A stretch of 64,000 nucleotides of DNA from NCBI RefSeq assembly GCF_988242995.1, contig NZ_OZ547043.1; one strand, 5' to 3'. Below, piece by piece: positions 43,482 to 64,000 of this stretch (the first letter of the stretch is position 1; each line of letters starts with the position of its first letter). The position numbers and the translations under genes were made by a program. The notes beneath the pieces were generated by a model. It worked only from the letters and a program-made list of their open reading frames with translations, did not search any database and had not been told where the DNA came from.

Positions 43482-43959
43482 AACAAACAACTCCTTGTCC
43501 GGAGAACCCCAACGGGGAAAACGAAATTCAATACCGTCGGTAATGACGAAAGGCAGGTGAGAAGGGCAACGAGACTGCAAATGTACTGAATTTCATGTAA
43601 TCAACCACACTGCCTGTGAACACACAGACAGAGAAATACTTTCTGACTTAGGGTCAGAATGTATAACGATTACAAATAGTCATCAGCACATTACACCTCT
43701 TGAATTGATGGGTTGCATAGAAAATATACACCTTAAGTGTAATTAAAATTTGCGGTTAATCAAAAGAGCGCGGTGGAAAGGGGAATATCTGCCGGGTACA
43801 GGACATGTAAAACGCGAGCTTGTTTCCGGAAAAATGTATCGTTTGCAGAAGAATAAAAATAGCCTGGAAAGCGCCTCGGGGAATGGGAAATTGCCGGGTG
43901 AGAATGGTTTTGTTAGTCGCTAAAGTCAGGCCATCTTTTTCAACAGGTGATGGATCGCC

Positions 43960-44874: not shown

Positions 44875-45117
44875 TCAGAGACGGATGACAAACGCAAAGC
44901 AGCCTGATGCGCTATGCTTATCAGGTCTACATAACCCATTAAATATATTGAACTTTAAAGATTTTTGTAGACCTGGTCAGGCGTTCACATGGCATCCGGC
45001 ATGAACAAAGCGTACTTTGCTTAATTCAGGCTGGAACGTGGCGATGACCCAGCAAAGATAAAACGAGTCACAGGTTATGCATGAGAGGAAATCAGGCGCT
45101 TCGCCGCTATTTCGAAT

Positions 45118-46530: not shown

Positions 46531-46706
46531 GCTGTATTCCTTATTTGGACCATACAGAGAGAAAAACCGGTACAGATGAGGCTAAAAAACCGGATGCAGA
46601 TGCTGTTTTAACCTGTCTGTATGTTAAATAAAACTAATATTTGCATCTGTATTGTGAACTGCCTGAAGGTGGATGATGAAGCCTCTGAAAGATGAGGAGG
46701 CAGCAG

Positions 46707-46871
46707 ATGGAATTTTACGAAAACAAAGCCAAAACGCCGTTTATCAGACTTGTGCAACTCTGGCAGGCGGTGAGGCGTTGGCGGCGGCAAATGCAGACCC
46801 GACGAGTGTTACAGCAGATGAGTGATGAGCGGTTGAGGGATATCGGGTTACGCAGGGAGGATGTGGAGTGA
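46707..46871 (+). CDS. yjiS: DUF1127-family small protein
   Basis: Found by hand (below ORF-track size cutoff): GAGGAGG RBS, ATG at 46707, MEFYENKAKTPFIRLVQLWQAVRRWRRQMQTRRVLQQMSDERLRDIGLRREDVE, 54 aa. Confidence 0.8.
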   Translation: MEFYENKAKTPFIRLVQLWQAVRRWRRQMQTRRVLQQMSDERLRDIGLRREDVE

Positions 46872-47320
46872 GGGGGATATAGATTTATATATAATAAAAC
46901 GTTTTTATGTTGTTAAATTAAGTTATAAAAATTTTCCCGAGACAATTCATCAATAGGTATGGAGTGTACAGGAATATCTTCTTCACTAACCTCTTTAAAC
47001 TCATACTGATAACGGTCAAAAAACGCACAGTGATTACTTGTGTTTTTTGACTGACTTTACAACTCTCATTATTCGCTATTGTGCAGTTTCTCTAATTGTT
47101 TTATATCCTGGAATGTTAAATGTCAGCTACTGAATACTTTTTGATTGTTTGAGATTTATTTTCATTTGAAATTATAAAATCAGGTGATAAATGAGTTGTG
47201 ATTAATAGATGGTTGATATCATTTTTATCAAAAATTGATTTCTAGTATCGACCTTAAAAAATAGTTGTTGCCGCTTGGTTAATTATACGATATTTTGAAA
47301 AGTTTTCTTTCAAATTAGAA

Positions 47321-50300
47321 ATGTTGTGGGGTTTTGTTTTTGTATCTTTTATCTCTAAGGAGCTTGCTTTGGGTCAATCAGAATACATTTCATGGGTAAA
47401 ATGTACTTCCTGGCTAAGTAACTTTGTGAATCTTAGAGGGTTGAGACAACCGGATGGACGTCCTCTTTATGAATATCATGCAACCAATGCTGAATATAAC
47501 CAATTAACGCAGCTACTCTGTGCTGTTGGTCAATCACAATCTAATATATGTAATAGAGACTTTGCTGCCTGTTTTGTTCTTTTTTGCTCTGAGTGGTACC
47601 GCAGGGATTATGAACGGCAATGCGGATGGACGTGGGACCCTATATATAAAAAAATAGGGATTTCATTCACCGCCACAGAGCTTGGTACTATCGTACCGAA
47701 AGGGATGGAAGATTACTGGCTGCGCCCAATTCGATTTTATGAATCTGAACGACGTAATTTTCTCGGAACATTATTCAGTGAAGGTGGTTTACCTTTCCGG
47801 CTACTCAAAGAATCAGACAGTCGCTTTCTGGCTGTTTTCTCCAGGATCCTTGGACAATATGAGCAAGCAAAGCAGTCAGGTTTTTCTGCCCTTTCGCTGG
47901 CAAGAGCTGTCATAGAAAAATCAGCGCTGCCAACTGTTTTTAGCGAAGATACCTCTGTAGAACTTATCAGTCATATGGCTGATAACCTCAATTCCTTAGT
48001 ACTTACTCACAACCTAACAAATCACAAAGAACCAGTACAACAGCTTGATAAGGTTCACCCTACCTGGCGAAGCGAGTTTCCAATACCGTTAGATGATGAA
48101 ACAGGAACGCATTTTTTGAATGGACTGCTATGCGCAGCCTCTGTAGAGGCTAAGCCTCGACTACAAAAAAATAAGAGTACGCGTTGCCAATTCTATTGGT
48201 CAGAAAAGCATCCAGATGAGCTTAGGGTGATAGTATCTCTTCCTGACGAAGTTTCCTTTCCTGTAACTAGCGAGCCGTCAACTACGCGCTTTGAACTTGC
48301 CATTTATGAAGATGGTGAGGAAGTCTCTGGCCTTGGGCCAGCCTATGCTTCCCTGGAAAACAGACAGGCAACAGTTCGATTACGTAAAAGCGAAGTGAGA
48401 TTTGTCAGGCAAAATCCATCTGCAGGTTTGTCGTTAGTGGCTCGTGCTGGAGGGATGATTGTTGGGAGCATTAAACTTGATGACAGTGAAATTGCCATTG
48501 GTGAGGTGCCGTTAACCTTCATCGTTGATGCAGATCAATGGCTGTTACAGGGACAGGCCTCCTGCAGTGTGCGAAGCAGCGATGTTCTGATTGTGCTCCC
48601 TCGGGACAATAGCACTGTTGCTGGTTTTGATGGCCAATCGAGTGCAGTAAACGTATTAGGACTTAAAGCGCTACCTGTTAAGGGATGTCAGGACGTTACA
48701 GTTACAGCAAATGAAACTTATCGGATTCGCACCGGAAGAGAACAAATCAGCATCGGAAGGTTTGCTCTAAATGGAAAGCGTGCAAGCTGGGTTTGTCATC
48801 CAGATGAGACATTTATTGGTGTACCAAAAGTCATTTCTACACTACCAGATATTCAAAGCATTGATGTAACGCGTTACCTGAGCGGAATTTCAATTGAGCA
48901 ATGTCATATACAAGAGATGCTAGGGGCTCAATATCTTTCTATCCGTAATAGTAATAATGAAACGCTCTTGCGTCGCAAAATCGGTATCTTGCCTGCTGAT
49001 TTCAGTATTGAGATAAAAGGTGGAATGCACGCAAATGAAGGCACTATCGTAATCACCACACAGCATCCTTGTGTAGCAACACTTAAAGATAAAACATTGG
49101 AGGCTACACGTAAGCGTACTGAGGGGCGAACAGAGATACAACTCAAAGCGGAAGGGGTACCTCCGGCATTTATTACATTACAAGTTCTGCCTAATTTGGC
49201 GGCTGATACCATCGACATTGAGTTACCTTTCCCAGCTAAAGGCTGCCTTGCTCTTGATGTAAACGGACGTCCTCTGGATAAAAACATTACGCTGCATGAT
49301 CTGCTGGGTTCCAGAGCATTCCTGTTCTCCAGAAATGGTGAGCCGACAAAATATACATTGCAGTTGCATTTGCGCTCCATTAGTGGATTACAGGCATGGC
49401 ACGAATGGAGTTATACGGCATTGAGCGAGCGTCCTGTTGAATTGAATCTCTATAGTCTACGTGAACACATTGAAAATCTGATTTCACTTGAGGCAGGTAT
49501 TGATCAGGTTGTTGAGATGCGTATTACGGGGGCGGGTGTGGTCATGGCCTGGCAAATTCGTCGCTATAAATACAGCCTGCGCTATGATTATGAAAAAGAA
49601 CTATTACTCAGCCAGTCAGTGAACCATCGTGCTGGACAGATTCCTTCCCCCGTTATCATGCTGTTAAGTGAACCCGAGAGGAAATCCATTCCCTTAGCAT
49701 CAAGAATGAGCGAGGGAGTGCCTGTCGGTGAATATGAGTTGAGCTCAATCGTTAACAAAAACGGACCATGGTTGGTTGTTCCTAAACCGGGTGAAGAGAT
49801 GGCTTTTCGCCCCTGCTTCATTCGTGGCGAATCTTCGTTACCGGTAGAAGAAAGCAACATCCGCTCATTGCAGAAAGCGACCCAGCTTTTTAATCCACAG
49901 GCAGAAGTTAATACCATCACACGGGTTCTCGGACAGATGGCTAACGATCCTGCCCATTCCGGCTGGCAATTTATGCGTAGCCTGTACGATCAATTTGGTT
50001 ATTTACCGCTGGCAACCTTTGAAGTATGGCGTGCACTAGTGCAGCATCCGCAGGCATTGGCGATGTCGCTCTTCAAATTCGAAATGTCAGCAGAGTATCT
50101 GAGTCGTATTGAGAATGAGTTCCCTATTTTATGGGAGTTTTTCCCCATCTTTGAGATCAAAGCTGCATCTGAGCGTTTCAAATTGTTCCTGAGCCAAAAA
50201 GGTGCACCGGAGGAAACCCAGAAATTACTGGTTACCAATATGTTTCAACGGCTGGGGCTCGTGTTCCCGACATATGCCGATGAAATTGAGAAATGGTTAA

Positions 50301-50659
50301 GTAATGGATATCTCCCCCCGTCTATTCCTGAATCTTGTGTCCACGGGTGGTATCAGGAGCTCTTACGTGAGCACAGTGAAGCTCGCTGGCCTGAATACGG
50401 CTGCAAGCGTCTGTATAAATGGATGATGTCACAAAAAAATCCAGTGATTGGTATTAATCCTGACGCAAATCACCGCTATTCCGTGGCCTGGTTACCCGTC
50501 TTCGCCGCAGCGGTGGCAAGCGGAAATGCTTCTTTTGAATCTGTATTTGACCGTAAACCCGGTGCCGTATTTTTCCTGAGGCAAGTCAGGGATTTCGATT
50601 CCCGCTGGTTTAAGGCCATCTTCCAGTTCAGCCTGTTGCGTTATGTTGCTAAAAAATAA
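47321..50659 (+). CDS. large protein (1112 aa) of unknown function, first gene of candidate defence operon
   Basis: Uninterrupted 3.3-kb ORF. No nucleotide-binding or nuclease motif recognised by eye. An in-frame TTG at 47369 preceded by AAGGAG may be the true start. Stop lies 12 nt before the helicase gene. Confidence 0.8.
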   Translation: MLWGFVFVSFISKELALGQSEYISWVKCTSWLSNFVNLRGLRQPDGRPLYEYHATNAEYNQLTQLLCAVGQSQSNICNRDFAACFVLFCSEWYRRDYERQCGWTWDPIYKKIGISFTATELGTIVPKGMEDYWLRPIRFYESERRNFLGTLFSEGGLPFRLLKESDSRFLAVFSRILGQYEQAKQSGFSALSLARAVIEKSALPTVFSEDTSVELISHMADNLNSLVLTHNLTNHKEPVQQLDKVHPTWRSEFPIPLDDETGTHFLNGLLCAASVEAKPRLQKNKSTRCQFYWSEKHPDELRVIVSLPDEVSFPVTSEPSTTRFELAIYEDGEEVSGLGPAYASLENRQATVRLRKSEVRFVRQNPSAGLSLVARAGGMIVGSIKLDDSEIAIGEVPLTFIVDADQWLLQGQASCSVRSSDVLIVLPRDNSTVAGFDGQSSAVNVLGLKALPVKGCQDVTVTANETYRIRTGREQISIGRFALNGKRASWVCHPDETFIGVPKVISTLPDIQSIDVTRYLSGISIEQCHIQEMLGAQYLSIRNSNNETLLRRKIGILPADFSIEIKGGMHANEGTIVITTQHPCVATLKDKTLEATRKRTEGRTEIQLKAEGVPPAFITLQVLPNLAADTIDIELPFPAKGCLALDVNGRPLDKNITLHDLLGSRAFLFSRNGEPTKYTLQLHLRSISGLQAWHEWSYTALSERPVELNLYSLREHIENLISLEAGIDQVVEMRITGAGVVMAWQIRRYKYSLRYDYEKELLLSQSVNHRAGQIPSPVIMLLSEPERKSIPLASRMSEGVPVGEYELSSIVNKNGPWLVVPKPGEEMAFRPCFIRGESSLPVEESNIRSLQKATQLFNPQAEVNTITRVLGQMANDPAHSGWQFMRSLYDQFGYLPLATFEVWRALVQHPQALAMSLFKFEMSAEYLSRIENEFPILWEFFPIFEIKAASERFKLFLSQKGAPEETQKLLVTNMFQRLGLVFPTYADEIEKWLSNGYLPPSIPESCVHGWYQELLREHSEARWPEYGCKRLYKWMMSQKNPVIGINPDANHRYSVAWLPVFAAAVASGNASFESVFDRKPGAVFFLRQVRDFDSRWFKAIFQFSLLRYVAKK

Positions 50660-50671
50660 AAAGGAATAAGG

Positions 50672-53600
50672 ATGACTACACGCTATTTTTCGTCACTTAT
50701 TGAACAATCGTTGTCTCGTTCAACTGAAGCAACGCTCAGTATCATGGGCGTTACAAACCCGCAGTTGCGTGAACATCTCGCGCAGCAAATGGGGGCTGAT
50801 TGTGGGAAACCGGGCTCATTCCTTGCTTCTCCGGTATTCCAGCAAATGTTTGGCTGGAAGGAGTCAAACCACACGATGCGCAGTCTGACGGAAGGCAACG
50901 CATTGTTGAGCAAAGCAGTGGTTGATTCACTGGATGATCAGAGTAATGGCCGGTACCGATTTGGTGCTGACTGGAAGCCTTTTACACACCAGTTAGCCAG
51001 TTGGAAAGCTTTGCTGGAAAAGAAACATTCAGTGGTGGTAACCAGTGGTACGGGTTCAGGTAAAACGGAATGTTTTATGGTACCGGTGCTGGAAGATCTT
51101 TACCGGGAACTGCATGAAAATGGCAACAATCCGTTGGTCGGTGTCCGAGCCCTTTTTCTCTATCCATTGAACGCCTTGATTAATTCACAGCGCGAGCGTC
51201 TGGATGCCTGGACGCGTGGTTTTGGTACTGGGATCCGCTACTGCTTGTATAACGGAAATACAGAAGAGCTCCACGCAAAAATGAAAACAGTGCAGGATAA
51301 TAGACCAAATGAAGTCTTATCCCGTGAAAAGATGCGTCTGGAGCCAGCCCCGATTCTGGTGACCAACGGCACGATGCTGGAATATATGATGGTTCGCCAG
51401 GTCGACGCCCCGATTATCCAGCAATCCAAAGCACAAAAATCACTACGCTGGATTGTACTGGATGAAGCGCATACCTATGTCGGGTCGCAGGCCGCTGAAC
51501 TGGCACTCCAGCTGCGTCGTGTGATGACAGCGTTTGGCGTGACGCCAGATGATGTGCGCTTTGTAGCGACCTCTGCGACCATTGCCTGCAGCGACGCCGA
51601 AAAGCAGCTGAAAAAATTTCTCTCTGAATTATCCGGTATCCCGCAGGAGCGCATCGATGTTCTGGACGGAAGTCGGGTGATTCCTGAACTGGAACCATCC
51701 AAAAACGTTTCTGTTCCGTTAGACGAAATAGAGCAAATACCTGATCTGGATCTAAAAGATAAAAATGATAATAAAATTAAAGGGATAAGCCCTGAGCGCT
51801 TTTATGCGCTTACGCACTCCCCCGAAGCGCGTTACATACGTGAAATGTTGGTTAGCCAACCCAATCCAATGAAACTGGATGAGATGACGCAGCGGTTAAA
51901 TGCGCTGACAAAACAGCATTACAGCCAGCAGGAAGTACTGCGTTGGATCGATGTCTGTTCAGGGACTCAACCTAATGCAAAGGATCCCGCATTTCTTAAA
52001 GTCAGGGCGCATATCTTCCAGCGTAATACCCAAGGAATATGGGCTTGTGTTGATAAAGATTGCAGATTAAAGCACGGTACACCGCTCGAAAAAGGCTGGC
52101 CCTTTGGCTATGTGTATGTGAACCAGCGACAAAATTGTGACTGTGGAAGCCCTGTATACGAAGTTGCATTCTGTAATGATTGTAATGAGCCTCATCTTCT
52201 GGCGCAGGACAAAAAGGGCAAACTTGTCCAATGGGAAAATAAAGGTGGCGATGAGTTCTCCTTGCAGGATGAAGTACCTGTTGAACATGACACTACAGAG
52301 GAAAAAGTCGAAAAAGAGAACGGTTTCCTGCCTCCGTTGATTATTGCCGCAGGAGAGACCAGCGAGACAGGCTATACCCTACAACGCCTCGACCACCAGA
52401 CGCGCCGTATTGGCGTTATTAACAATGACAGCATTCCGCTGATTATTAATGATGTTGAACAGGTTTGTAGCGCCAGTGGCTGTGGCTACAGAGGCATGAG
52501 TGGGAAACAGCCCTTCCGGCGTGCACTATTAGGTGGGCCATTTTACGTTACTAATATCGTGCCCACCGTTCTTGAGTATTGTCAGGACTTTACCAGTGAT
52601 GAAGGCAAAGAGGGCGTCGGACCAGATTCGTTGCCAGGGCGAGGACGTCGACTCATTACCTTTACGGACAGTCGACAAGGTACAGCTCGAATGGCGGTGC
52701 GTATGCAGCAAGAAGCAGAACGCAGTCTCTTACGCGGAAGCGTAGTCGAAATTCTGAGCTGGCATCAACGGACGCAAACGTCCACGGCGCCGAATGCCAA
52801 TGCCGATCTGGAAAAATTAGCGGCCAGGGCAAAGCAAGCCCGTGAGCAGGCAGAAGAATATCGAAGCTGGGGAATGCCAGACCAGGCGAAATTGTCACAA
52901 GCACAGGCTGAACAGCTTGAACAGGCTTATCAGGCTGCAACCGGTGGAAAAGCAGCAACTACCCTGGTATCCCGCACCTGGACAGAAATGGTTAACGAGC
53001 TTAAAGATAAAGCCGATATCCGTGGCCCGGTACTGAAATATAACCACTATTTGCAGCCTGAAGTGTTTAATAAAAACGGCGGGCCACTAAAGCTTTCGGA
53101 AATGTTGTTGTTCCGGGAATTCATGCGTCGCCCTAAACGGACTAACAGCCTGGAAACACAGGGGCTGGTTCAGGTTGGTTACCAGGGGCTGGAGAAAATA
53201 CATAAGAGCCCCTTGCACTGGCAGGAAAAAGGATTAACGCTGGATGACTGGCGCGATTTTCTCAAGGTTACGTTGGATCTTTATGTTCGCGAAAGCAACT
53301 TCACACAGCTGGATGATGAGCTGAAAAACTGGATTGGTAGCCGTTTTTCATCAAAATTCGTCCGTAACCCGGAATCAAAAGATCCTGAAGATAATCAGAA
53401 CAGACGCTGGCCTCAAATTCGTAATGGCAACGTATCCCATCGTTTAGCGAAGTTACTGATGCTGGGGGCTGGATTCAAAACCGTCAATACGGCGACTATT
53501 GATATTATCAATACATGGCTGAAAGAAGCATGGGCCCAACTTACCGGACCACTTGCAGTACTGAAACCCGATGGCAACCGTTTTTATTTACCGAAAGAGC

Positions 53601-56600
53601 ATATGACTTTTTCTTTAATCACGGATGCCTGGATTTGCCCGGTAACCAATAAAATCCTGGATACGGCTTTTAAAGGCTTAACCCCTTATCTGCCCACCCA
53701 TATTTCGTTCGAGCATCTTACCCAGGCGCAATATGACACTTTTGTCGCGCAGAAAGTCACCATGCCGGAAATCTGGAAGCTGGATCGTTCACAGGAAGAC
53801 TACGCAGAGGGTCTGGCAAAAGCACGAGACTGGGTCAACAATGATCCGCTGATCGCACAATTGCGGTCGGAAAACGTCTGGACAGACATCAACGATCGTG
53901 TAGTGGAAGGCGGTTTCTACTATCGCACTGCCGAGCACTCTGCCCAGCAGTCGTCAGAACGCCTGCAAAGCTATGAAAAGATGTTCAAGAACGGGCAACT
54001 AAATGTTCTCAACTGTTCCACCACCATGGAAATGGGGGTTGATATTGGGGGCATTACTGCGGTGGTAATGAACAACGTTCCGCCACATCCGGCCAACTAT
54101 TTACAGCGCGCCGGGCGAGCCGGGCGTAGTAAAGAATCACGCGCGATCTCTTATACCCTATGCAAAGGTAACCCACACGACCAGCAGGTTTTTGCCAACC
54201 CACTCTGGCCATTTGAAACCATGATCCCGGCACCCATGGTCGCGATGAACTCCGCCCGACTGGTGCAACGTCACGTCAATGCATTATTACTGTCTGACTT
54301 TTTATGTAACGTTATTGGCGAAACCGATAAAGAGAAAACCAGCCTCGATAGCCTCTGGTTTTTCGGTGAAGATGACGGGCAGTCAAAATGCGAACGCTTT
54401 AAAGTCTGGCTGGAACGCCCGGTTCTTGATATCGACATGGCGCTGGAACGGCTGGTGAAAGGTACGGCGTTGCATGGCGCAAGAGCCGAACATCTGCGGG
54501 ATAAAACAATCAATGCGATCACCTTCCTGCAACAGCGGTGGCTCTCCGTTTATCGCGATCTCGTGACCCAGGAGCGTGAGTCGCAGCCGCAAACGCCTTA
54601 TCGTAAGCGCATAGAGCTGGAGAAGAAACGGCACTGTGGCGAGTATCTGCTGCGCGATCTGGCTGCCAGAACCTTCCTGCCGGGATACGGTTTCCCGACA
54701 GATGTAGTGACGTTTGATAACTTCACGATGGAAGATTATATCCGCGAAAAATCGCAGAAAAGTCGTGATAAAAAGGACCGTGAAGATAACGTCTCCCGTT
54801 ATAAAGGATTACCTTCCCGTAACCTCGGTGTTGCCATTCGTGAATATGCACCGGGAGCAGAGATCATTCTTGATGGTCGTGTCTTCCGCTCTGCCGGTGT
54901 CTCACTGCACTGGCACAACATTAATGCTGATACCAATGAAGCCCAGCGTCTGGATTGCGCCTGGCGCTGTCACAAATGCGGGACCATTGGCTATGAAGAG
55001 GGGATGAGCAGTTCCGGGATGCTCTTTTGCTCCAACAGCGCCTGCGGCGAAAAAATAACCATGGATAATCGCCGTCAGGTGTTGCAGCCTGCCGGGTTTG
55101 TCACCGATGCACACGCTCCGGTAACGAACAATATTGAAACCATGAAATTCGTCCCGGTTGTCCCCGCGTGGGTCTTTGTTAAAGCAGAGCCTGTACCGTT
55201 GCCTAACCCGCTAATGGGTTATATGGCTTCTGGGGCTGATGGGCATGTTTTCCAGCAAAGTTTGGGGGAAGGTGGACACGGTTATGCATTGTGTCTGAGC
55301 TGTGGCCGTGCGGAGTCGATGCTGAATGAAAATGATGCACCGAAAAGTATGGAAGCTCACTATCCACCGCGTCCGGGTAAAGCGGACCGCGACAGCCAGA
55401 ATCATCGTCTGATTTGCCCCGGTTCGACGGCACTCATGAAGAACGTCACCCTGGGCGCACTGGCGCGCACCGATGTCTTTGAAATGGTTCTGCGCAAACC
55501 GCAAAACGGCGAGTATCTGCCAGATAACACAGAAGAGGGGCGGATTGTCGCTATGACTCTGGCGGTTGCTCTGCGTCAGGCGCTGGCAGGCGTTCTGGGT
55601 ATCTCCGCCGCAGAACTCGGCTATTCTGTACGTCCGGTCAGACTGGAGGATGGGCAATCGGTATTAGCCGTTCAGCTTTATGATGTGATCAGCGGTGGTG
55701 CTGGTTTTGCCTCCAGCGCACCGGTACATATTGAAGCTATATTGCAGGGAATGGTGAAACAGTTAGGCTGCCGCCATTGTGATACTGCATGCAGTGAATG
55801 TCTGCTTGATTCCCAGACTCGCCACGATCACGATTTGCTGGATCGCAAAGTGGCGCTGGCTTGGCTTGGCGATGACTTCACGTATTACATCGGTTTACCG
55901 GATGAAGAGACATTCTCGCTGCCGGATGCCCGCTACTGCCCTGGCGCTATTGGCGATACGATTCGCCGGGCGATTAACGAAGGCGCTGAAAAGCTCACCC
56001 TGTGGATGACTGGCGCGCCCAATGAGTGGGATTTATACGGCCGTCAGTTCCGCGCGGCTATTCAGAGCTATCGGCTAAAAGACAACGTCGAGGTCGATCT
56101 TGTTATTCCTGCGGGAGTGGATGACCCAGACCTGTTGCATGAACTATCGCAATTTACTGCGCTGGGTGTGCGGTTGTGCCATGTTGAGCAGGAGCTGCAA
56201 TTACCGATTGTTGCCCAGGTCACCTTTGCCGATCGCGTGATGACGCTGGCCTCTCGCAGTCAGCAGGCAACGATTCCGGGGCCGGAGTGGCACCTGAATG
56301 ACGAACTGGTGGTGCGTAGTCTCGGTTATCAAACGGTAGAACTGAACGAGTTTATTCTGCCCGCTAAAGCCGCCAACGCTGTCGAGCGGGTCAAAGACAT
56401 TCAGATCCACAAACAGTTGAATGGACCACTTTCGCAGTTTGGGCAACGCTTCTGGGACGTGCTGTTTAACGACCATGAAGAAGCGCAGTCACTGATGAAA
56501 AACACGCGAATTACCGGCGTTCACTATACCGATCGCTATCTGCAAAACCCGGTTGCGCTGGCGTTGTTGGGATCAATTCTGAAACCGCTAAAAACAAAGC

Positions 56601-57016
56601 TGACCGATGGCGCTGAAGTGGCGCTGGATACGCTGTTTAAAGATAAAGATCGCCCCGGTAACCGGCCTTTCCATGACTGGATGAGCATAGCGGATTTTCA
56701 GGATTTCGCTGATCAGTGGTTTGCTGCTGCGCTGGGCAGGCCGATAGAACTGACGGTGTTCGATTCGCCGCGCGATATCCCTCACCATCGTAAACTGACG
56801 GTGACTTTTGAGGATGGTCAGGTATTGAAGATCCGCTTCGATCAGGGGATGGGCTACTGGCGCATCAACTTTGCATCGCAATGGCATTACTTTGATTTCC
56901 GCGATGACGTTTCTTTCCAGTTAGTCAAAATGGCTCAGGCCTGCAAGGAAGGGAATGTGGCCAACAGCGAAGAGAGCTGGGCAACGGATGTGCTGGTGGA
57001 GGTGATCGCCTCCTGA
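50672..57016 (+). CDS. giant SF2 (DEAH-type) helicase, 2114 aa, with Cys-rich zinc-ribbon clusters (DUF1998/MrfA-like); DruE-like candidate
   Basis: Walker [11 protein letters not shown] (51041-51070); DEAH box VLDEAH (51455-51472); FVATSAT; motif [10 protein letters not shown] (54104-54127); Cys clusters at 52046-52183, 54956-55045, 55292-55303 and 55769-55801; AAGGA RBS before the ATG. Confidence 0.85.
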
Positions 57017-57023
57017 TGATGTG

Positions 57024-57050
57024 CCGCTCCCGACGTCGTGTCGGGAGCGG
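57024..57050. terminator. bidirectional hairpin terminator between the convergent helicase gene and mcrC
   Basis: Perfect inverted repeat ccgctcccgac-gtcgt-gtcgggagcgg 8 nt after the helicase stop, followed by tattgtct. Confidence 0.55.
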
Positions 57051-57072
57051 TATTGTCTATAAAACTTACCGC

Positions 57073-58119
57073 TTATTTGAGATATTCATCGAAAATGGCG
57101 AGTAATTCTTGATGTATACACGGCCATTCCTGACCTAAATTGACGGTACACAGGCCAATATCGAAGCCATTAATTTTATAACGATGTTTCACTGCGGTGT
57201 CTACGTGGGGGTATATTAATAAACCCCCTATGTTTTCGCCATTTTCAGGTTTTAACGACCATAAGTAATTCATCAGTTGATAAAGATTTTGAGAGTGAAA
57301 TTTTTCTGAGCCCATTCGTCGTGAAAAAATGCTCTTATAGTATTTGGCGTCAACGATAAGTATTTTTTCTGATGAGCGAATGGTGATGTCAGTTTCCATT
57401 CGAGGTAACAAATTAAGTGACTGATCCGATATGCTCGATGCATCCCATTTTAAATAAGAGCGGGTTGTATTTGCAGACGTTAATTCACGGCGGCAAAATT
57501 CAAAAAGAAACTTTTGATAAAGTAATGACATCTCTTTTTCGTTTCTTTCAAAATCATAGAAACGGTAGTGTCCTTTGTTTTGACCTGGGATAGAATTATT
57601 GACGATGAACTTACAGACGCTGATAACAAATTTATAATAACGCGTGTTCTTTCCGCCATTCAGATAGCTGAAATGCTGCGGAGTTAAATGAAGAGTGCTA
57701 ATGCCCGGTAATTTTCTATAAAGTGAACGAGCTTCATCTCTGATGGTTGAGTTTAACTTTTCATGCTTAATTAACATGGCTAATGTGCTTTTTATAATTC
57801 GGTTAGCCAGCGTATCTTCATTAAGCAGATCAAAAGTACTGACGGTTTTCCCATGATTAAGATGGAAGCCGCGTATTGTTTTAGCAAACTCTATTCGCCC
57901 TTTGATGCCAGGAATGATCTCGGTATTAGGATTGTAATCAAGCTCAAGCCCTCGGCGTGAAAGCTGTAAAACCCCTTTATTTAATACATACCCCAGGATA
58001 TCAAGAAGATTGTTACCGGGAATGGCTTCAAGGTCGGCCTGCTTAATTTCCTGTAAATAACCCCATGCATAGGTAAGCATGTAATAGATATTACGGACAG
58101 GTATCACGGGCTGTTCCAC
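57073..58119 (-). CDS. mcrC: McrBC restriction endonuclease, nuclease subunit
   Basis: 348-aa ORF whose start overlaps the mcrB stop; recognised as McrC. Confidence 0.9.
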   Translation of the reverse strand: MEQPVIPVRNIYYMLTYAWGYLQEIKQADLEAIPGNNLLDILGYVLNKGVLQLSRRGLELDYNPNTEIIPGIKGRIEFAKTIRGFHLNHGKTVSTFDLLNEDTLANRIIKSTLAMLIKHEKLNSTIRDEARSLYRKLPGISTLHLTPQHFSYLNGGKNTRYYKFVISVCKFIVNNSIPGQNKGHYRFYDFERNEKEMSLLYQKFLFEFCRRELTSANTTRSYLKWDASSISDQSLNLLPRMETDITIRSSEKILIVDAKYYKSIFSRRMGSEKFHSQNLYQLMNYLWSLKPENGENIGGLLIYPHVDTAVKHRYKINGFDIGLCTVNLGQEWPCIHQELLAIFDEYLK

Positions 58120-59498
58120 TATGAGTCACCTAATAATTTGTCGGCCCATATCTGTTGTTTATAGGGGTCATCAAAGAAATATTCTTCGAGTAAAGGGGCG
58201 ATATCCGTCATCACAATTTCCTTAAGCCATTGCGTATCAGGAGAGGTGCCATCTTCCAACCCGGAGCAGAAGTAACTATGCCCAATGCGGAATCCTTTCC
58301 CAAGGATAGTGGCCTCTTTGCTGATTTCCTGGTTTAACTCATTCATTTTTTGGCATAAAGACTCAACAAATGAAGGTTCTGCTTTTTTATTCAGTAAAAA
58401 ATTACGGAACTGTGGTGTATCAAAACCAGGCTCAATATCTATGAAAGAAAATCGTCTGCGCAGGGCATAATCAACAACGGCCAGAGAGCGATCGGCAGTA
58501 TTCATTAAACCGATAATATAAACATTCTCCGGGACATAGAATCGTTCTTCATCGTTTTCGGAATAGGTTAAGGGAACAGACCAGTTTTCACCTCGTTTAT
58601 CATGTTCCATTAACATCATCACTTCGCCAAATACTTTACTGAGATTGGCACGATTGATTTCATCTATAATAAAAACATACTTTTTCTCTGGCTGCTCTTT
58701 AGCTTGCTGACAAAAATTGTAAAATATGCCGTCTTTACGTCGGAAGCCGACGCCATTCGGACGATAGCCCTGTATAAAATCCTCATAGCTATAAGATTGA
58801 TGGAACTGAACCATATTGACGCGTTGCGGAGCCTTTTCTCCTGTCAGCAGGTAAGCCAGACGGCGTGCAACAAAGGTTTTTCCAACGCCGGGCGGCCCCT
58901 GGAGGATAATATTTTTTTTGATGGTTAATCGTTTGAGTATCGTCTCTATCGTGGTTTCAGGGATAAACAAATCATTTAACGCATCTTCCAGACAGTATGA
59001 TTCAGTTTTTGACATAGGTGGAATAACACTCTTGCCAGAATTAAATATTAATTTATAGTCGTTGATTATGTTGTCCAGCATGGAGGCAAACCGGGTATAA
59101 TCAAGACCCTGTGAGACTTTTTGGGAACAGGCGTAATAGGACTGTCCGTATTTTTTAGGATAAACACCTGAAGTTGTCTGGAAATACTCTGCGATTGTTT
59201 TAGGTATGTCTGAAGAGAACTGCCATTGGGCATGTGGTTTATTCGTGTCGCTTATACCATAAGCCAAAACCAACTCATCAAAATCTTTATAATAGAGAAT
59301 AACGGGATATATACCGTTAGAAACTTCCTGACCTTCTCCCAGAAATGCAAACCAGGGAATAGATGTAAAATTGCCATAACCGAAACTCACTTTTACTCGC
59401 AGGTTACGGTAAGACGTTGGATAATCTTTGGTGGATTGTGAACTTTTTTGCTGTGCTTGCTCAATAAATTTTTCAATCCAGGCTTGAATTGATTCCAT
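58119..59498 (-). CDS. mcrB: McrBC 5-methylcytosine-specific restriction enzyme, GTPase/DNA-binding subunit
   Basis: AAA+ Walker A GPPGVGKT and Walker B FIIDEINRAN; start placed at MESIQAWIEKF for about 459 aa (ORF track begins 6 codons earlier). Confidence 0.9.
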   Translation of the reverse strand: MESIQAWIEKFIEQAQQKSSQSTKDYPTSYRNLRVKVSFGYGNFTSIPWFAFLGEGQEVSNGIYPVILYYKDFDELVLAYGISDTNKPHAQWQFSSDIPKTIAEYFQTTSGVYPKKYGQSYYACSQKVSQGLDYTRFASMLDNIINDYKLIFNSGKSVIPPMSKTESYCLEDALNDLFIPETTIETILKRLTIKKNIILQGPPGVGKTFVARRLAYLLTGEKAPQRVNMVQFHQSYSYEDFIQGYRPNGVGFRRKDGIFYNFCQQAKEQPEKKYVFIIDEINRANLSKVFGEVMMLMEHDKRGENWSVPLTYSENDEERFYVPENVYIIGLMNTADRSLAVVDYALRRRFSFIDIEPGFDTPQFRNFLLNKKAEPSFVESLCQKMNELNQEISKEATILGKGFRIGHSYFCSGLEDGTSPDTQWLKEIVMTDIAPLLEEYFFDDPYKQQIWADKLLGDS

Positions 59499-59659
59499 AA
59501 GATGTGCCTTCCTCATTGCTAAGCCTCTATTATCGCTTTCGCAACGTACTGAAACAATAGATTTTTACTGCAAAAGGTGGTGGGTAAATATTTACTGAGG
59601 GGGAAAGTTTCTATTGAGTCAGTGGAAGGCTCCCGGTGGTTAACCGGGAGTAAACGCTG

Positions 59660-60001
59660 TTACGCGACTTTCTGTTTACCGGCAATCACTCCAATAAACG
59701 CCTGCACCTGCTTTTGTTTACGTGCCGACAGCTTGCACACCTGGCGCAGCGACTGCATCAGTTCGCTCTCTTCGACGGCGAGTGGTTGGGCGGTGAGGAC
59801 AATACAGCCTTCCATCACTTTGACATCTACCGCCGTGCCGGTGGTAAAACCGGCGGCTTCCAGCCACTGACCTTTCAGGGTGATGGCGGGAATACGGCTG
59901 TAATCCGGGTAGCGACTCGCATAACTCACGGTTAATTGACGGTTATTTGCCGGGGAGACTTCTGCTTCGAACGGTTGTGCAATAGAATGCATGTCAGTCA
60001 T
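59660..60001 (-). CDS. symE: SOS-induced toxin SymE (AbrB-fold RNA endonuclease-like)
   Basis: 113-aa [55 protein letters not shown]...; upstream LexA box. Confidence 0.85.
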
Positions 60002-60072
60002 GATTACTATTCCTTAGAAATAGGGATTGTGATTAGCGGTGCGGGTGTGTTGGCGCACATCCGCACCGCGCT
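59996..60072 (+). ncRNA. symR: cis-antisense sRNA SymR (antitoxin RNA of symE), approximate
   Basis: Plus-strand TAGAAT -10 at 59983-59988 inside the symE 5' codons; GC-rich hairpin at 60036-60069 would end a roughly 77-nt transcript antisense to the symE RBS and start codon. Boundaries inferred. Confidence 0.35.
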
Positions 60073-60078
60073 AAATAC

Positions 60079-60094
60079 CTGGATATATCATCAG
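60079..60094. promoter_or_regulatory. LexA box (SOS operator) upstream of symE
   Basis: CTGGATATATCATCAG fits CTGT-N8-ACAG with one mismatch in each half; about 80 bp upstream of the symE start. Confidence 0.5.
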
Positions 60095-60228
60095 TAAATA
60101 CCGGGAAAGTCCAGCTAAAAATAGAATAAAATGGGCAATTTCCGGAATGATTTAAATATATTTATGTGAGTTATGATTGGCGAGAAATAATAAAAAGCGC
60201 ACCGGAAAGGTGCGCCAGAAAATAATGA

Positions 60229-61653
60229 TCAGAACTTTTTACGCGAGGCTTTTTTACCCCCGCTGGCTGCGCGCTCAGCTTTGATTTTCTCCAGCAACGC
60301 AGCGGCGCTGTTTTCTCCGCTGATTAAATCCGGGTTTTCGGCCCGCCACTGGGCGGTGAGTTCACCACGGAACGCTTTTGCCAGGATGGATTGCGTCAGG
60401 TTGTTGACGCGGGCTAAGGCGTTGTTGACCTGTTTTTCTATGGAGTCGGCGTAGGCGAAGAGTTGCTCGACGCGGCGAACGATTTCGTGTTGTTCTTCTA
60501 TAGACGGTAAAGGGACAAATGCATTTTTAAGATCTTTTAAATTTAATGTCTTTCTGGCGACCTCCTTAGATGACTGAACTAGCCATGTTTGCATAACTGG
60601 TGAACTTAACCATATATGGAGAAACATAGGAACAATAATCTTATATTCAGGAGATATTCTGGCAACGGCACGAGCGATATTAACATTTATATCTTCTCTA
60701 ACAATACCTATTCTACCTATAGCCCCAACAATTGTTACAAGAATGTCATTCTTTCGTACTTTGGAACGCTTATATTGTAAATCTATTTCCTTTGAAATTT
60801 TACGAAGATGATTTAAATCTACTTCACCATCGTTAATATCACAAACACGAATTAATTCTATACCGTCTTTTATATCATCTCCAGGTTGCACCACACCATA
60901 ACATAATGGTCTTTGTGTATTGATAATGTTATTCAAAATTGTTTCACTCCAGTCTTCTGGAATAAGGATTTTGTAGTTATCTAATTCAACTTTTTTTGTT
61001 ATAAAATCTTTATCTTCTTTGGTCAACCTACCAGTTACTGCCGCAGCCAACACCGCCTGACGAAAACGTTTCAGGATTTGTGGGATTTGCTCAAGGCGTG
61101 CTTTGGTGCTGTCTACCTGCGCCAGCAGCGTATCGAGTTTTTCAGCGATGATTTTTTGCTCGGCAAGTGGTGGCAACGGAAGTAGGGTATCTTGAAGTGT
61201 CCTGGAAGAAAGATGCTTTACAGTAACCGAGGACGTATTTGCATTGATTGCGGATAAATATCCTGGTAAGGCGTGATAGAAAAACCTTTTATTGTATTTG
61301 TCTTCCTGAACTTCAATTTTACATACTCGTTGATTTAACAGAGCTGGTTCTGAGCACCATATAGTTGCATTAAAATCACCATCCATTCCCACGATTAAGT
61401 CTTCGGGATATACCCAATATCCCTCAGGAATTTGACCCGAGTAATAAGTCGATGTATTACCTTTTAGAACATCACGAATTCTAATTAATGGTACACCATC
61501 TTTACGATTATTAAATTCTGACGACTTAAAAGCAAAACCGTTTGTGATGTTTGCTACGGAATCCATTGAAATACGTAACCAGCTATCATGGATTGAAAGT
61601 AACCCATTGATATTTTGCTCAATTAATTCTTTTGATGTTGAGTTGAAACTCAT
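60229..61653 (-). CDS. hsdS: type I restriction-modification specificity subunit
   Basis: 474-aa ORF with two variable target-recognition regions separated by a conserved central repeat (LPPLAEQKIIAEKLDTLLAQVDSTKARLEQIPQILKRFRQAVL) and a similar C-terminal repeat (LPSIEEQHEIVRRVEQLFAYADSIEKQVNN); 4-nt overlap with hsdM. Confidence 0.9.
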   Translation of the reverse strand: MSFNSTSKELIEQNINGLLSIHDSWLRISMDSVANITNGFAFKSSEFNNRKDGVPLIRIRDVLKGNTSTYYSGQIPEGYWVYPEDLIVGMDGDFNATIWCSEPALLNQRVCKIEVQEDKYNKRFFYHALPGYLSAINANTSSVTVKHLSSRTLQDTLLPLPPLAEQKIIAEKLDTLLAQVDSTKARLEQIPQILKRFRQAVLAAAVTGRLTKEDKDFITKKVELDNYKILIPEDWSETILNNIINTQRPLCYGVVQPGDDIKDGIELIRVCDINDGEVDLNHLRKISKEIDLQYKRSKVRKNDILVTIVGAIGRIGIVREDINVNIARAVARISPEYKIIVPMFLHIWLSSPVMQTWLVQSSKEVARKTLNLKDLKNAFVPLPSIEEQHEIVRRVEQLFAYADSIEKQVNNALARVNNLTQSILAKAFRGELTAQWRAENPDLISGENSAAALLEKIKAERAASGGKKASRKKF

Positions 61654-63239
61654 TCCTTCACCCCACCAAACGCTTCTTCCAGCAACTGACGCTGTGCATC
61701 CGCCTCATCGCTCGCTCCCAGTTCACGTATCAGCGCATCCAGTTCGCCCAGCGCCTGTACCAGCTCGCCCATCGCTTCTGCCGCTAATACATCCGGCTCC
61801 GGCAGGTTGTCGGCATCAATGCTATCTTTATCTTTCAGCCAGGAGATATCCAGCGAATCGGATTTCGTGGTGCGGATCCACTCGCGGGTGAACTTACGCC
61901 AGCGGCTGGTAGCCAGGTGCTGGTCGGTGTTTTTGTTCTCTTCGCTGTCGGCAACTTCCGTCTCTTCGGCGTTAAAACTCCATTCCCCTTCGCTACGCGG
62001 GCTTAAACCGTGCGGATCTTCGCCATACACGCGCTCAAACGGCTGCAGATGCTCGTCGGTAAACGGCGTGCGTTTGCCGAAGCTCGGCATATTGGTACGC
62101 AGGTCGTACACCCACACATCATCGGTACAGTTCTTATCCTGATGCGGGTTCGCCACCGTCCCTTTGGTAAAGAACAGCACGTTCGCCTTCACGCCCTGCG
62201 CGTAAAAAATACCGGTCGGCAGACGCAGAATAGTGTGCAGATGACACTTATCCATCAGGTCACGACGGATGTCCGTGCCTTTGCCGCCTTCAAACAGCAC
62301 GTTATCCGGCACCACCACCGCCGCACGACCGCCGGGGTGCAGTGTTTCGATAATATGCTGCATAAAGCACAATTGTTTGTTGCTGGTCGGGTGAACAAAG
62401 GTACGGGTAATGTTGGTGCCTGCGGCGCTACCAAACGGCGGGTTAGTGGCGACAATATGCGCCTTCGGCAGGTTTTCACCGTCGCTACCCAGGGTGTTGC
62501 CCAGACGGATTGCGCCACCGTGGTCGAGGTTGCCTTCGATATCGTGCAGCAGGCAGTTCATTAGCGCCAGACGACGGGTGCCGGGTACCAGTTCGAGGCC
62601 GATAAACGCGCGGTGGATCTGGAAATCCTGCGTGTCGCCATCAAGGTCGTCCAGATCGTTAGTCTGCGACTTAACGTAGCGGTCAGCTTCAATCAAAAAG
62701 CCCGCTGTACCTGCTGCCGGGTCCTGCACCACTTCACGCGGCTGCGGTTTCAGCAGATGAATAATGGTTTTAATCAGCGGACGTGGGGTGAAGTACTGGC
62801 CCGCGCCAGACTTGGTTTCGTTGGCGTTTTTCTGCAACAGCCCTTCGTACATATCGCCGAAGTCATCGCGTGACTTACCGTGCGCGCCGTTGTACCAGTC
62901 CAGTGAATCCATATTGCTGACCAGTTCGGTCAACTGTTTCGGCTGGGTAATGGTGGTGTTGACGTTCTGGAACACCGCCTGCACCAGCTTTTGATTGTCG
63001 GCGCCCAGATGCACCAGCAGGTTACGGTAGAACTGCAACTGCTCCTGGCCGATGCGGGATTTCAGGTCATCCCAGCGGTAGCCTTCCGGCAGGTATTCCG
63101 CTTCCTGTCCGGTTTCTTTACACATTTTCAAAAACAGCAGCGAGGCGAGTTCATTGACGTAGTTTTGATAGGAAACGCCGCCATCGCGCAGGTTGTCGCA
63201 CAGTTTCCACAGCTTCGCGACCAGATCGTTATTGTTCAT
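61650..63239 (-). CDS. hsdM: type I restriction-modification N6-adenine DNA methyltransferase subunit
   Basis: 529-aa ORF with the catalytic NPPF motif (IVATNPPFGSAAG) and SAM-binding region. Confidence 0.95.
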   Translation of the reverse strand: MNNNDLVAKLWKLCDNLRDGGVSYQNYVNELASLLFLKMCKETGQEAEYLPEGYRWDDLKSRIGQEQLQFYRNLLVHLGADNQKLVQAVFQNVNTTITQPKQLTELVSNMDSLDWYNGAHGKSRDDFGDMYEGLLQKNANETKSGAGQYFTPRPLIKTIIHLLKPQPREVVQDPAAGTAGFLIEADRYVKSQTNDLDDLDGDTQDFQIHRAFIGLELVPGTRRLALMNCLLHDIEGNLDHGGAIRLGNTLGSDGENLPKAHIVATNPPFGSAAGTNITRTFVHPTSNKQLCFMQHIIETLHPGGRAAVVVPDNVLFEGGKGTDIRRDLMDKCHLHTILRLPTGIFYAQGVKANVLFFTKGTVANPHQDKNCTDDVWVYDLRTNMPSFGKRTPFTDEHLQPFERVYGEDPHGLSPRSEGEWSFNAEETEVADSEENKNTDQHLATSRWRKFTREWIRTTKSDSLDISWLKDKDSIDADNLPEPDVLAAEAMGELVQALGELDALIRELGASDEADAQRQLLEEAFGGVKE

Positions 63240-63439
63240 TGTAAGTTCCGTAAATTAAGCAGCGGCCCGCATGTTCGGGGCCGCAGAAGAAGAAATTGCC
63301 GAGGGTAATATACACAAAATCATTCAGATTGCATCAAGGCGGCAAGTGAGCGAATCCCCGGGAGCGTACAGAAGTACTTGACCGGGGTAAACGAGCGCAG
63401 CCAACGCAGAGGCAGCCTGAAGGATGAAGTGTATACGTG

Positions 63440-64000
63440 TCAGGCCAGCTCGTCCCAAATGTAATCGCTGAATTTATCGAGCAGGTTGTCGAGATTATCG
63501 TCAAAGGTTCTTTGCAGCATCGCCTTCCCGCCGCGACGGTGGAAGTTGCCGGTTTTGAAGACATCGTCGTCGAGCACCACTTTCTCTTTCAGCGCCTGCG
63601 CTAAACGATCGAGCCAGCTTAATTGCTCGCTGCTCCAGTCATTTTCGCCCTTAATGCGCGTCAGCGCGTGATCGACACGTTCCTCAAACGGTTTCAGCGC
63701 ATCGCCCACCGCAGCGCGGCGAATATGTCCAATCAGCCGGGCGGCGATATCTTCATTGCGCGTCTCTTGCCATGCTTTGCGCAGGGAAGATTCCTCAAAG
63801 TGCTGGCGGTCAAACCACTCCTGTAGCTCGACCAGCCCTTTACGGGTGAGATCGCGCGGGCGATTAATCACCGCCTGCAATGCCGGCTGTGCATTCGGGG
63901 AACGTTGCACCAGCGAGTCAAAGGCTTCGAGGAAATCCTGCGGCGTGTCGTAATCACCGTACAGCGATTTTACGCTCACCACTTCATCGTCGATATCGAG
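63440..64000 (-). CDS. hsdR: type I restriction enzyme R subunit, C-terminal 187 codons only (gene continues beyond window)
   Basis: Minus-strand ORF ending ...DYIWDELA with stop at 63440; position upstream of hsdM as in hsdRMS operons. Confidence 0.85.
   Translation of the reverse strand, partial: LDIDDEVVSVKSLYGDYDTPQDFLEAFDSLVQRSPNAQPALQAVINRPRDLTRKGLVELQEWFDRQHFEESSLRKAWQETRNEDIAARLIGHIRRAAVGDALKPFEERVDHALTRIKGENDWSSEQLSWLDRLAQALKEKVVLDDDVFKTGNFHRRGGKAMLQRTFDDNLDNLLDKFSDYIWDELA

Follow-up and report, generated by a model that had tools for sequence, protein, structure and literature searches.

The window, i.e., the 64,000-nucleotide stretch of DNA analysed here, carries in its last seven kilobases mcrC-mcrB, symE with its antisense RNA, and hsdS-hsdM-hsdR, adjoining a convergent two-gene operon, druH-druE (Table 1). 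The interval 57073–64000 very probably belongs to the E. coli immigration control region (ICR, defence hotspot #36), of which it would form the restriction core, arranged as in E. coli B. The hallmark of the ICR is present, with type I hsdRMS alongside the type IV modification-dependent restriction genes mcrB and mcrC. Of the two ICR anchors, yjiR and yjiS lie inside the window at 45118–46871, and the yjiA side lies outside it. The latter is seen in strain CRE444, which, like many other E. coli chromosomes, is 100% identical to the window, and whose annotation runs hsdR-mrr-yjiA beyond the window edge. A sequence-only reading had placed mcrC-mcrB, symE and hsdS-hsdM-hsdR opposite to the helicase gene in the classical immigration-control arrangement. 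All of these elements were found intact on the minus strand, hsdR being represented in the window by its 3' end, and the gene order and strands match K-12 and B.

Table 1. Genes, RNA and sequence elements of the ICR in the window (positions are those of the whole window).
Feature	Position	Strand	Evidence or remarks
yjiS (DUF1127), conserved left anchor	46707..46871	+	Annotation of identical genome; breakpoints
druH (yjiT), Druantia type III component	47321..50659 (annotated start 47369)	+	PADLOC DruH3 1830 bits; NCBIfam YjiT_fam 1277 bits
druE, Druantia type III helicase-nuclease, 2114 aa	50672..57016	+	PADLOC DruE3 2692 bits
Hairpin between convergent druE and mcrC, perfect 11-bp stem, 5-nt loop	57024..57050		CCGCTCCCGAC-GTCGT-GTCGGGAGCGG
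mcrC, 348 aa	57073..58119	-	NCBIfam equivalog 450 vs cut-off 338 bits; PF10117 (McrBC)
mcrB, 459 aa from annotated start 59498	58119..59516 (longest ORF start 59516)	-	NCBIfam equivalog 1103 vs cut-off 637 bits
symE, type I toxin / nucleoid-associated protein	59660..60001	-	NCBIfam NF010128 223 vs cut-off 132 bits; PF08845 77 bits
symR antisense RNA antitoxin	59996..60072	+	Rfam RF01809, 93 bits vs gathering 61, E = 2e-17, full length 1-77/77
LexA-box-like palindrome	60079..60094		CTGGATATATCATCAG; pattern match only
Terminator-like hairpin and T tract, just past hsdS stop codon	60196..60216	-	Top-ranked site in terminator scan
hsdS, EcoBI allele, family IA, 474 aa	60229..61653	-	PADLOC 679 bits; BL21 identity
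hsdM	61650..63239	-	PADLOC MTase_I 765 bits; N6_Mtase and HsdM_N
hsdR 3' end, cut by window edge	63440..64000	-	PADLOC REase_I 408 bits, positions 992-1170 of 1170

The identity and intactness of the genes, the limits of the modules and the variability among strains were observed directly, and the enzymatic activities given below for the ICR systems are those that would be expected from knowledge of the respective families.

The mcrB and mcrC genes share base 58119, mcrC lying immediately downstream. McrB combines an N-terminal MrcB_N domain with AAA_5 (Pfam), as expected for a DNA-binding domain followed by an AAA+ GTPase. The proteins are nearly the same as those of K-12, with 342/348 identical residues in McrC and 444/459 in McrB. 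At 97–98% identity to the K-12 enzyme, McrBC would be a GTP-dependent type IV enzyme cutting DNA that contains modified cytosine. PADLOC did not detect McrC or SymE and gave McrB only a weak REase_II label; we regard this as a gap in the library and not as evidence against these identities, the NCBIfam equivalogs being decisive.

The product of symE contains the AbrB-like SymE_toxin domain found in SymE (PF08845). The antisense RNA to this gene that the sequence-only reading had proposed was confirmed by the Rfam match on the plus strand: symR covers 6 nt at the beginning of symE (start at 60001) together with its 5' untranslated region, as in K-12. Rfam gave no other known RNA above the gathering threshold in 46000–64000. 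A single CTG-N10-CAG palindrome lies a short way upstream of where the symE transcript begins, as a pattern match only. SOS control of symE is established in K-12, and by analogy symE may be under LexA control here as well. SymE would be an SOS-inducible toxin or nucleoid-associated protein, silenced by the cis-antisense RNA SymR. A consensus promoter scan found fewer promoter-like sites than were present in shuffled sequences (16 vs 25) and therefore says nothing about promoters.

The hsdM and hsdS genes overlap by 4 bp (61650–61653), and hsdR is separate upstream, with a gap of 200 bp before hsdM. Since only about the last 180 codons of hsdR fall within the window, the integrity of the restriction-modification system rests on the identical genome of CRE444, where hsdR is complete. 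HsdM shares 510/529 residues with its EcoKI counterpart. EcoKI was rejected as the identity of the system by comparison of hsdS, which shares with the K-12 and 19A14 alleles only the segments 60229–60500 and 61022–61173, the variable target-recognition regions being located at about 60501–61021 and 61174–61647. At the same time, the nucleotide sequence of hsdS matches BL21 hsdS with 100% identity in both halves, on either side of IS1, which identifies the type I system, by its allele sequence, as EcoBI of family IA. HsdS scores 405 bits against an NCBIfam equivalog cut-off of 662 bits, as is to be expected of a model fitted to an allele of different specificity. HsdRMS would methylate its own sites and cut unmethylated ones after ATP-driven translocation.

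On the other side of mcrC, the operon that the sequence-only reading had singled out as a candidate can be assigned to Druantia type III, a known anti-phage system. Its two genes are separated by a gap of 12 bp. DruE contains DEAD, Helicase_C and MZB/DUF1998 domains (Pfam) and aligns end to end with the solved structure 9tu7 (1018 bits). The match of DruH to the solved DruH (9tud) is weak, with only 79 bits, mostly from the first 260 residues, and DruH has been assigned (PMC13192584) to the ICR-encoded YjiT family. The YjiT-type DruHE resident in the ICR represents a divergent Druantia III lineage. An anti-phage activity that needs both proteins has been reported for other Druantia III lineages; no experimental test of the ICR-resident lineage was found in the literature searched. 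The operon thus indeed belongs to a slot dedicated to defence, as had been proposed, and that slot is a published defence hotspot. A new system was rejected, given the DruH3 and DruE3 matches in PADLOC and the already published occasional presence at the hotspot (PMC10121019, PMC13192584). This is a textbook defence island, and the operon is not worth pursuing as a new kind of system.

The GC-rich hairpin in the space where druE and mcrC converge folds with −29.2 kcal/mol (z = −4.9) as read on the plus strand and −24.7 kcal/mol (z = −5.2) on the minus strand, and in either orientation none of 200 shuffled sequences was as stable. It was called on neither strand by a consensus terminator scan because its T tract is weak: the stem is followed by TATTGTCT on the plus strand, and the minus strand lacks a T run. 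K-12 and strain 19A14 keep the same hairpin, which in 19A14 adjoins symE and precedes a TTTTT run. In the 60 genomes that have DruHE without mcrBC, druE directly adjoins symE and the hairpin stays with druE, the homology to the window stopping at 57049, the last-but-one base of the stem. By this comparison the hairpin should be considered part of the druE module, marking the right edge of DruHE, and not part of mcrC; it is probably the terminator of druE. The position and convergent setting of the hairpin had thus been described exactly, and its suggested role in separating two transcription units is retained as a probable one, with the hairpin now attributed to the druE side.

The location of the homology break within the stem, and the presence of a different GC-rich hairpin at each convergent ICR junction sampled, would also fit an element serving mainly recombination or module swapping at cassette boundaries, rather than transcription termination. 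We consider this unlikely. The junction hairpins are unrelated in sequence, which rejects one hairpin common to all ICR junctions as a shared recombination site; the hairpin with TTTTT in 19A14 looks like a classical intrinsic terminator of druE; and any exchange of cassettes would be expected to leave a break where a transcription unit ends.

The variability of the locus was assessed in 5,426 complete genomes, a set in which laboratory derivatives of K-12 and B are strongly over-represented, so that the following frequencies are not population estimates: the yjiR-yjiS flank is present in 3,760 genomes, symE in 2,872, DruHE DNA of any kind in 674 (near-full ICR-type, with at least 80% of the length, in 231), mcrBC in 596 (nearly complete in 581), and the present hsdS allele in 101. 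At least seven different ICR configurations were seen among the sampled strains, and the slot downstream of yjiS contains nothing, GmrSD or penicillin acylase in other strains. In most other E. coli, homology to the window ends 0–7 bp past the yjiS stop codon (46871–46878). The sequence-only reading had named an invariant yjiS-mcrC slot as the outcome that would speak against it; the slot proved far from invariant. However, the natural unit of variation is yjiS-to-symE rather than yjiS-mcrC, because mcrBC is itself an optional cassette, of 2.6 kb. This cassette (57050–59663) sits as an insertion, with the probable druE terminator hairpin on one side and the symE stop codon on the other. The junction of the druE 3' end with mcrC was found in 582 genomes, as against the 581 with near-complete mcrBC, and mcrBC appears to occur in E. 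coli essentially only next to an ICR-type druE 3' end.

These data are consistent with the ICR being a mosaic of cassettes that recombination would swap within the interval anchored by yjiS and yjiA. The GC content is likewise mosaic, with 37% in the 5' region of druH, 54% in the 3' region of druE, 39–42% in mcrBC, 37–40% in hsdS, and 53–56% in hsdM and hsdR. A repeat search over 46500–64000 revealed only short, chance-level direct and inverted repeats, and none of the modules was found to be flanked by repeats or att-like sites; there is therefore no evidence for delivery of the cassettes by a site-specific mobile element.

The four modules of this ICR (McrBC, HsdRMS, SymE/SymR, and druH-druE) would each work independently. 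Alternatively, the location of Druantia III beside McrBC and the type I system could be functional and not mere co-location, the ICR acting as an integrated system in which cleavage by McrBC or EcoBI would supply DNA ends or single-stranded regions for DruE. Both the near-equal numbers of druE-mcrC junctions and near-complete mcrBC loci and the published observations that Druantia III acts on phages also sensitive to restriction, and that it shows synergy with the nickase-bearing Zorya II, agree with such coupling. Yet the linkage is explained equally well if mcrBC was inserted once into an ICR that carried DruHE, and the locus then descended vertically and decayed. Moreover, the majority of mcrBC-positive genomes, e.g., K-12 and B, hold only remnants of DruHE, McrBC being known to work in genomes of these types, and the 60 genomes mentioned above have DruHE but not mcrBC. 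An integrated system seems improbable to us, and we give just as little weight to cooperation of the ICR-resident DruHE lineage with the adjacent restriction enzymes, in analogy to the suggestion that Zorya II feeds the other lineage of Druantia III in E. coli.

Another reading is that the locus is a decayed or silent remnant devoid of a present defence role, like yjiT/yjiV of K-12. Decay is common here, as exemplified by the deletions in K-12, by those associated with IS1 in B and in GN25, and by IS elements that have inserted in several strains. For the window, such a state is most improbable, since all open reading frames are full length, with no frameshifts or internal stops found, the proteins are identical to those of many independent isolates, and symR is intact over its full length. 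The intact B-type ICR could offer natural material for assays of the ICR-resident Druantia III, alone or with McrBC and EcoBI.

The ICR has been described as a defence island holding type IA, IB and ID systems, Mrr, McrBC, GmrSD and symE-symR (PMC12707154), and Druantia and type IV systems are occasionally present at hotspot #36 (PMC10121019). Hence, the gene set, its arrangement and the presence of Druantia here are already published in outline, and exact boundaries are now given for the DruHE, McrBC, symE/symR and type IA hsd cassettes. The Druantia III systems of E. coli ATCC 8739, EDL933 and ECOR19, which are characterised both by experiment and by structure, have the same two-gene druH-druE composition and the same DruE domain set, with a DEAD core, but are located on another island, beside Zorya II and ARMADA II.

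Among the ICR variants, those with type IB and ID systems, in O157:H7 and ST131, have the same yjiS and yjiA anchors and a symE/symR core (window 59664–60132) that is 92–95% identical. In contrast to the window, they contain other type I families and neither DruHE nor McrBC. The type IV partner in O157 is a split GmrSD, whereas ST131 has a restriction endonuclease and BrnTA, with yjiS adjoining symE across a 42-bp spacer.

The K-12 ICR (yjiS-yjiT'-yjiV'-mcrCB-symE/symR-hsdSMR-mrr-yjiA) has the same gene order, strands, symR position and hairpin between the helicase gene and mcrC, and 94–98% identity of McrC, McrB, SymE and HsdM. It differs in carrying the EcoKI allele of hsdS, for which the alignment gives only 205 identical residues, and in two deletions (window 48878–51894 and 54045–56228) that leave yjiT and the pseudogene yjiV of DruHE. 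In the ICR of E. coli B, the DNA is 99.9–100% identical over 53663–64000. BL21 has the same EcoBI hsdS allele, and its McrC, McrB, SymE, HsdM, HsdR and Mrr are identical, with WP accessions in common. On the other hand, an IS1-associated deletion has removed from B the segment from the 3' part of rpnD through yjiR, yjiS and druH to the 5' part of druE (window 44727–53662), and IS1 lies inside BL21 hsdS, which is uninterrupted in the window. As judged from these breakpoints, yjiT/yjiV of K-12 and the helicase fragment of E. coli B are deletion remnants of an intact druH-druE operon, and the window can be regarded as the undamaged ancestral form of the E. coli B ICR.

The window is E. coli chromosome, with positions 50000-64000 matching many complete genomes at 100% identity. 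In CRE444, a complete genome identical to the window, the annotated gene order is yjiR, yjiS, yjiT, DEAD/DEAH helicase, mcrC, mcrB, symE, hsdS, hsdM, hsdR, mrr, yjiA. The locus is the immigration control region (ICR) of the E. coli chromosome, the earliest defence island studied, which has been equated with defence hotspot #36 (PMC12707154). The sequence-only reading had placed mcrC-mcrB, symE with its antisense RNA, and hsdS-hsdM-hsdR on one strand, opposite a two-gene candidate operon, and had called this the classical immigration-control arrangement. Matches to NCBIfam, Pfam, PADLOC, and Rfam confirm the genes and their strand, and the gene order of CRE444 bears out the arrangement. No internal stops occur in any of the window ORFs; hsdR is incomplete and ends at the window end.

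Genes of the ICR in the window and the family matches that identify them
Feature	Coordinates	Strand	Evidence
druH ORF	47321-50659	plus	1112 aa; PADLOC DruH3, 1830 bits; NCBIfam YjiT family
druE ORF	50672-57016	plus	2114-aa helicase; PADLOC DruE3, 2692 bits; DEAD, Helicase_C, MZB/DUF1998 domains
mcrC ORF	57073-58119	minus	NCBIfam equivalog NF007277, 450 bits (cut-off 338); Pfam McrBC
mcrB ORF	58119-59516	minus	NCBIfam NF008457, 1103 bits (cut-off 637); Pfam AAA_5 and MrcB_N
symE ORF	59660-60001	minus	NCBIfam NF010128, 223 bits (cut-off 132); Pfam SymE_toxin
symR	59996-60072	plus	Rfam RF01809, full length, 93 bits (gathering score 61)
hsdS ORF	60229-61653	minus	Pfam Methylase_S; PADLOC type I S subunit, 679 bits
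hsdM ORF	61650-63239	minus	Pfam N6_Mtase and HsdM_N; PADLOC type I M subunit, 765 bits
hsdR partial ORF	63440-63982, continuing to window edge	minus	Pfam EcoEI_R_C; PADLOC type I R, 408 bits

SymR, antisense to the start codon and 5' UTR of symE, is the single match of the Rfam search, no further families reaching threshold within 46000-64000. A CTG-N10-CAG palindrome at 60079-60094, found by pattern match only, lies just 5' of the symE transcript start. In K-12, symE is under SOS control, and the palindrome is compatible with control of the same type. Directly 3' of the hsdS stop codon, the consensus scan identified a terminator-like hairpin with a T tract (60216-60196, minus strand), while a repeat search found no meaningful repeats flanking any module.

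The PADLOC and domain matches identify the candidate operon as Druantia type III (DruHE), in line with the earlier proposal that it sits in a slot devoted to defence. Over its full length DruE can be aligned with 9tu7, a DruE-like helicase of solved structure (1018 bits), and DruH matches the solved DruH 9tud with 79 bits only, mostly over its first ~260 residues. The YjiT family includes DruH, and its E. coli member is located in the ICR (PMC13192584). The yjiS-druH spacer (46872-47368, ~450-500 bp) is strongly AT-rich, at about 37% GC, and a consensus scan detected no sigma-70-like promoter there.

Between druE and mcrC, the hairpin reported at 57024-57050 was recovered at exactly these coordinates (CCGCTCCCGAC / GTCGT / GTCGGGAGCGG). 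Its folding energy is -29.2 kcal/mol for the plus and -24.7 kcal/mol for the minus strand (z-scores near -5), and none of the shuffled sequences reached the same stability. The hairpin is kept in K-12 and in 19A14, a DruHE-bearing strain without mcrBC; druE retains it where mcrBC is absent. Comparison of the window with these two strains gives no evidence for or against covariation, because the differences are confined to the loop and a single pair at the top of the stem (C-G to T-G). In 19A14 the hairpin is followed by TTTTT, as a classical intrinsic terminator of druE would be; the corresponding tract of the window is TATTGTCT, no T run occurs on the minus strand, and the consensus terminator scan made no call at 57024-57050. 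We infer that the hairpin is a putative druE terminator, which may also weakly impede transcription of mcrC. It might instead be a recombination site common to ICR junctions, but each sampled convergent junction carries a different GC-rich hairpin, which argues against this role.

The module limits were taken from pairwise blastn and junction sequences. Homology with strains lacking DruHE ends at 46871-46878, immediately 3' of the yjiS stop codon, and the DruHE module extends to 57049, including the hairpin. The 2.6-kb mcrBC cassette (57050-59663) is followed by a symE/symR core, from 59664 to approximately 60122-60132, with 92-95% identity to type IB and type ID ICRs, and then by the family IA hsd genes. 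Shifts in GC content agree with these limits: ~37% at the druH 5' end, 54% at the druE 3' end, 39-42% in mcrBC, 37-40% in hsdS, and 53-56% in hsdM/R. The spacer between symE and the converging gene, yjiS or druE, has the same ~42-bp, one-hairpin form in three unrelated ICR types (in the numbering of the comparison loci, L004 25452-25495, L008 201-243, and L013 15017-15060).

Of 5,426 complete E. coli genomes, 582 contain the junction of the druE 3' end, hairpin, and mcrC, and 581 have near-complete mcrBC; these near-equal totals, compared by count rather than per genome, suggest that within this set mcrBC is practically always situated beside the 3' end of an intact or decayed druE. In 60 further genomes druE directly abuts symE, without mcrBC. 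On the simplest reading, mcrBC was inserted only once, into an ICR that carried DruHE, and the arrangement was then passed on by descent and decayed; functional coupling of the two systems is a possible but unsupported explanation of the linkage.

Laboratory derivatives of K-12 and B are over-represented in the same set, and hence the following are counts, not population frequencies. The yjiR-yjiS flank was found in 3,760 genomes, any part of ICR-type DruHE DNA in 674, DruHE at at least 80% of its length in 231, the DruHE segment missing from K-12 in 245, mcrBC in 596, conserved segments of family IA hsdS in 922, and the hsdS allele of the window in 101. The most widely kept element is symE/symR (2,872 genomes), common to type IA, IB, and ID contexts.

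Between yjiS and yjiA, the window and CRE444 carry DruHE, McrBC, SymE, type IA hsd, and Mrr. Strain 19A14 has the same set without McrBC, and ETEC-2265 resembles 19A14 with an IS-disrupted DruHE and a rearranged upstream flank, so yjiS is unannotated; K-12, BL21, and GN25 retain deletion remnants. In ST131, E110019, and a musk deer isolate, yjiS is followed directly by symE; next come type I hsd genes arranged R-S-M, a restriction endonuclease, and BrnTA. O157:H7 has a split GmrSD, symE, EcoAI-family type I hsd, and a second split GmrSD-like pair; FEA3 and PAR have decayed forms, and SE11 and W only penicillin G acylase. The ICR of PAR (L011 3374-5224) contains only symE, an hsdR fragment, and an annotated 616-aa 3'-5' exonuclease gene adjoining yjiA. 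The slot is highly variable and its occupants are mostly defence genes; given this variety and the genome counts, the comparison across strains proposed earlier therefore does not reveal an invariant housekeeping interval.

Elsewhere in the window, CRE444 annotation places a frameshifted and N-terminally truncated yjhR helicase gene beside a restriction endonuclease gene fragment (9747-11460); this region, ~36 kb upstream of the ICR, may be what is left of a further defence or mobile element. The window has one more toxin-antitoxin-like module, a topAI (YjhX-family toxin)-yjhQ-yjhP cluster at 7393-9009, annotated in an identical genome. At 43954-44874 it carries an intact copy of rpnD, which encodes a recombination-promoting nuclease of the Rpn family; this gene has become a pseudogene in K-12 MG1655, and IS1 truncates it in E. 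coli B and GN25. Inside it, at 44726/44727, begin the IS1-associated deletions of the B lineage.

Family membership suggests how each of the four modules would act. The McrB N-terminal domain would bind modified cytosine, with GTP-driven translocation and cutting via McrC. An EcoBI-type HsdM2S complex would methylate a bipartite target and, with HsdR, translocate on unmodified DNA and cleave at a distance. SymR would pair with the symE 5' end and block expression until SOS induction; SymE is now labelled a nucleoid-associated protein in K-12 annotation. As shown for other Druantia III lineages, DruE may be a helicase-nuclease that works on phage DNA where it is single-stranded, and DruH its sensor or partner.

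The ICR arrangement, its variability, and Druantia at the hotspot have already been published; PMC10121019 describes hotspot #36 as an occasional site of Druantia. Mildly new are the precise limits of the cassettes, the apparently near-complete mcrBC-druE linkage within the 5,426 genomes, and the distance of the ICR-resident DruHE lineage from characterised Druantia III. The tested E. coli systems (ATCC 8739, EDL933, ECOR19) reside in a different island, adjoining Zorya II; the ICR-resident lineage, for which the literature searched yielded no experimental test, is by sequence a divergent one, far from that characterised. In K-12, yjiT and the pseudogene yjiV represent the DruHE operon of the window minus 48878-51894 and 54045-56228; B strains have lost 44727-53662, beside an IS1.

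The ICR version in the window is assigned to the E. coli B form, because the McrC, McrB, SymE, HsdM, HsdR, and Mrr accessions are the same in BL21, the DNA is 99.9-100% identical from 53663 onward (pairwise blastn), and hsdS matches as well. In BL21 this gene is split by IS1; both halves are 100% identical to hsdS of the window and overlap by 8 bp, as expected for an IS1 target duplication. This identity identifies the type I system as the EcoBI allele of family IA. EcoKI has a similar HsdM (510/529 residues identical), but its HsdS is common to the window only in the conserved distal and central segments (60229-60500 and 61022-61173), and both target-recognition regions differ.
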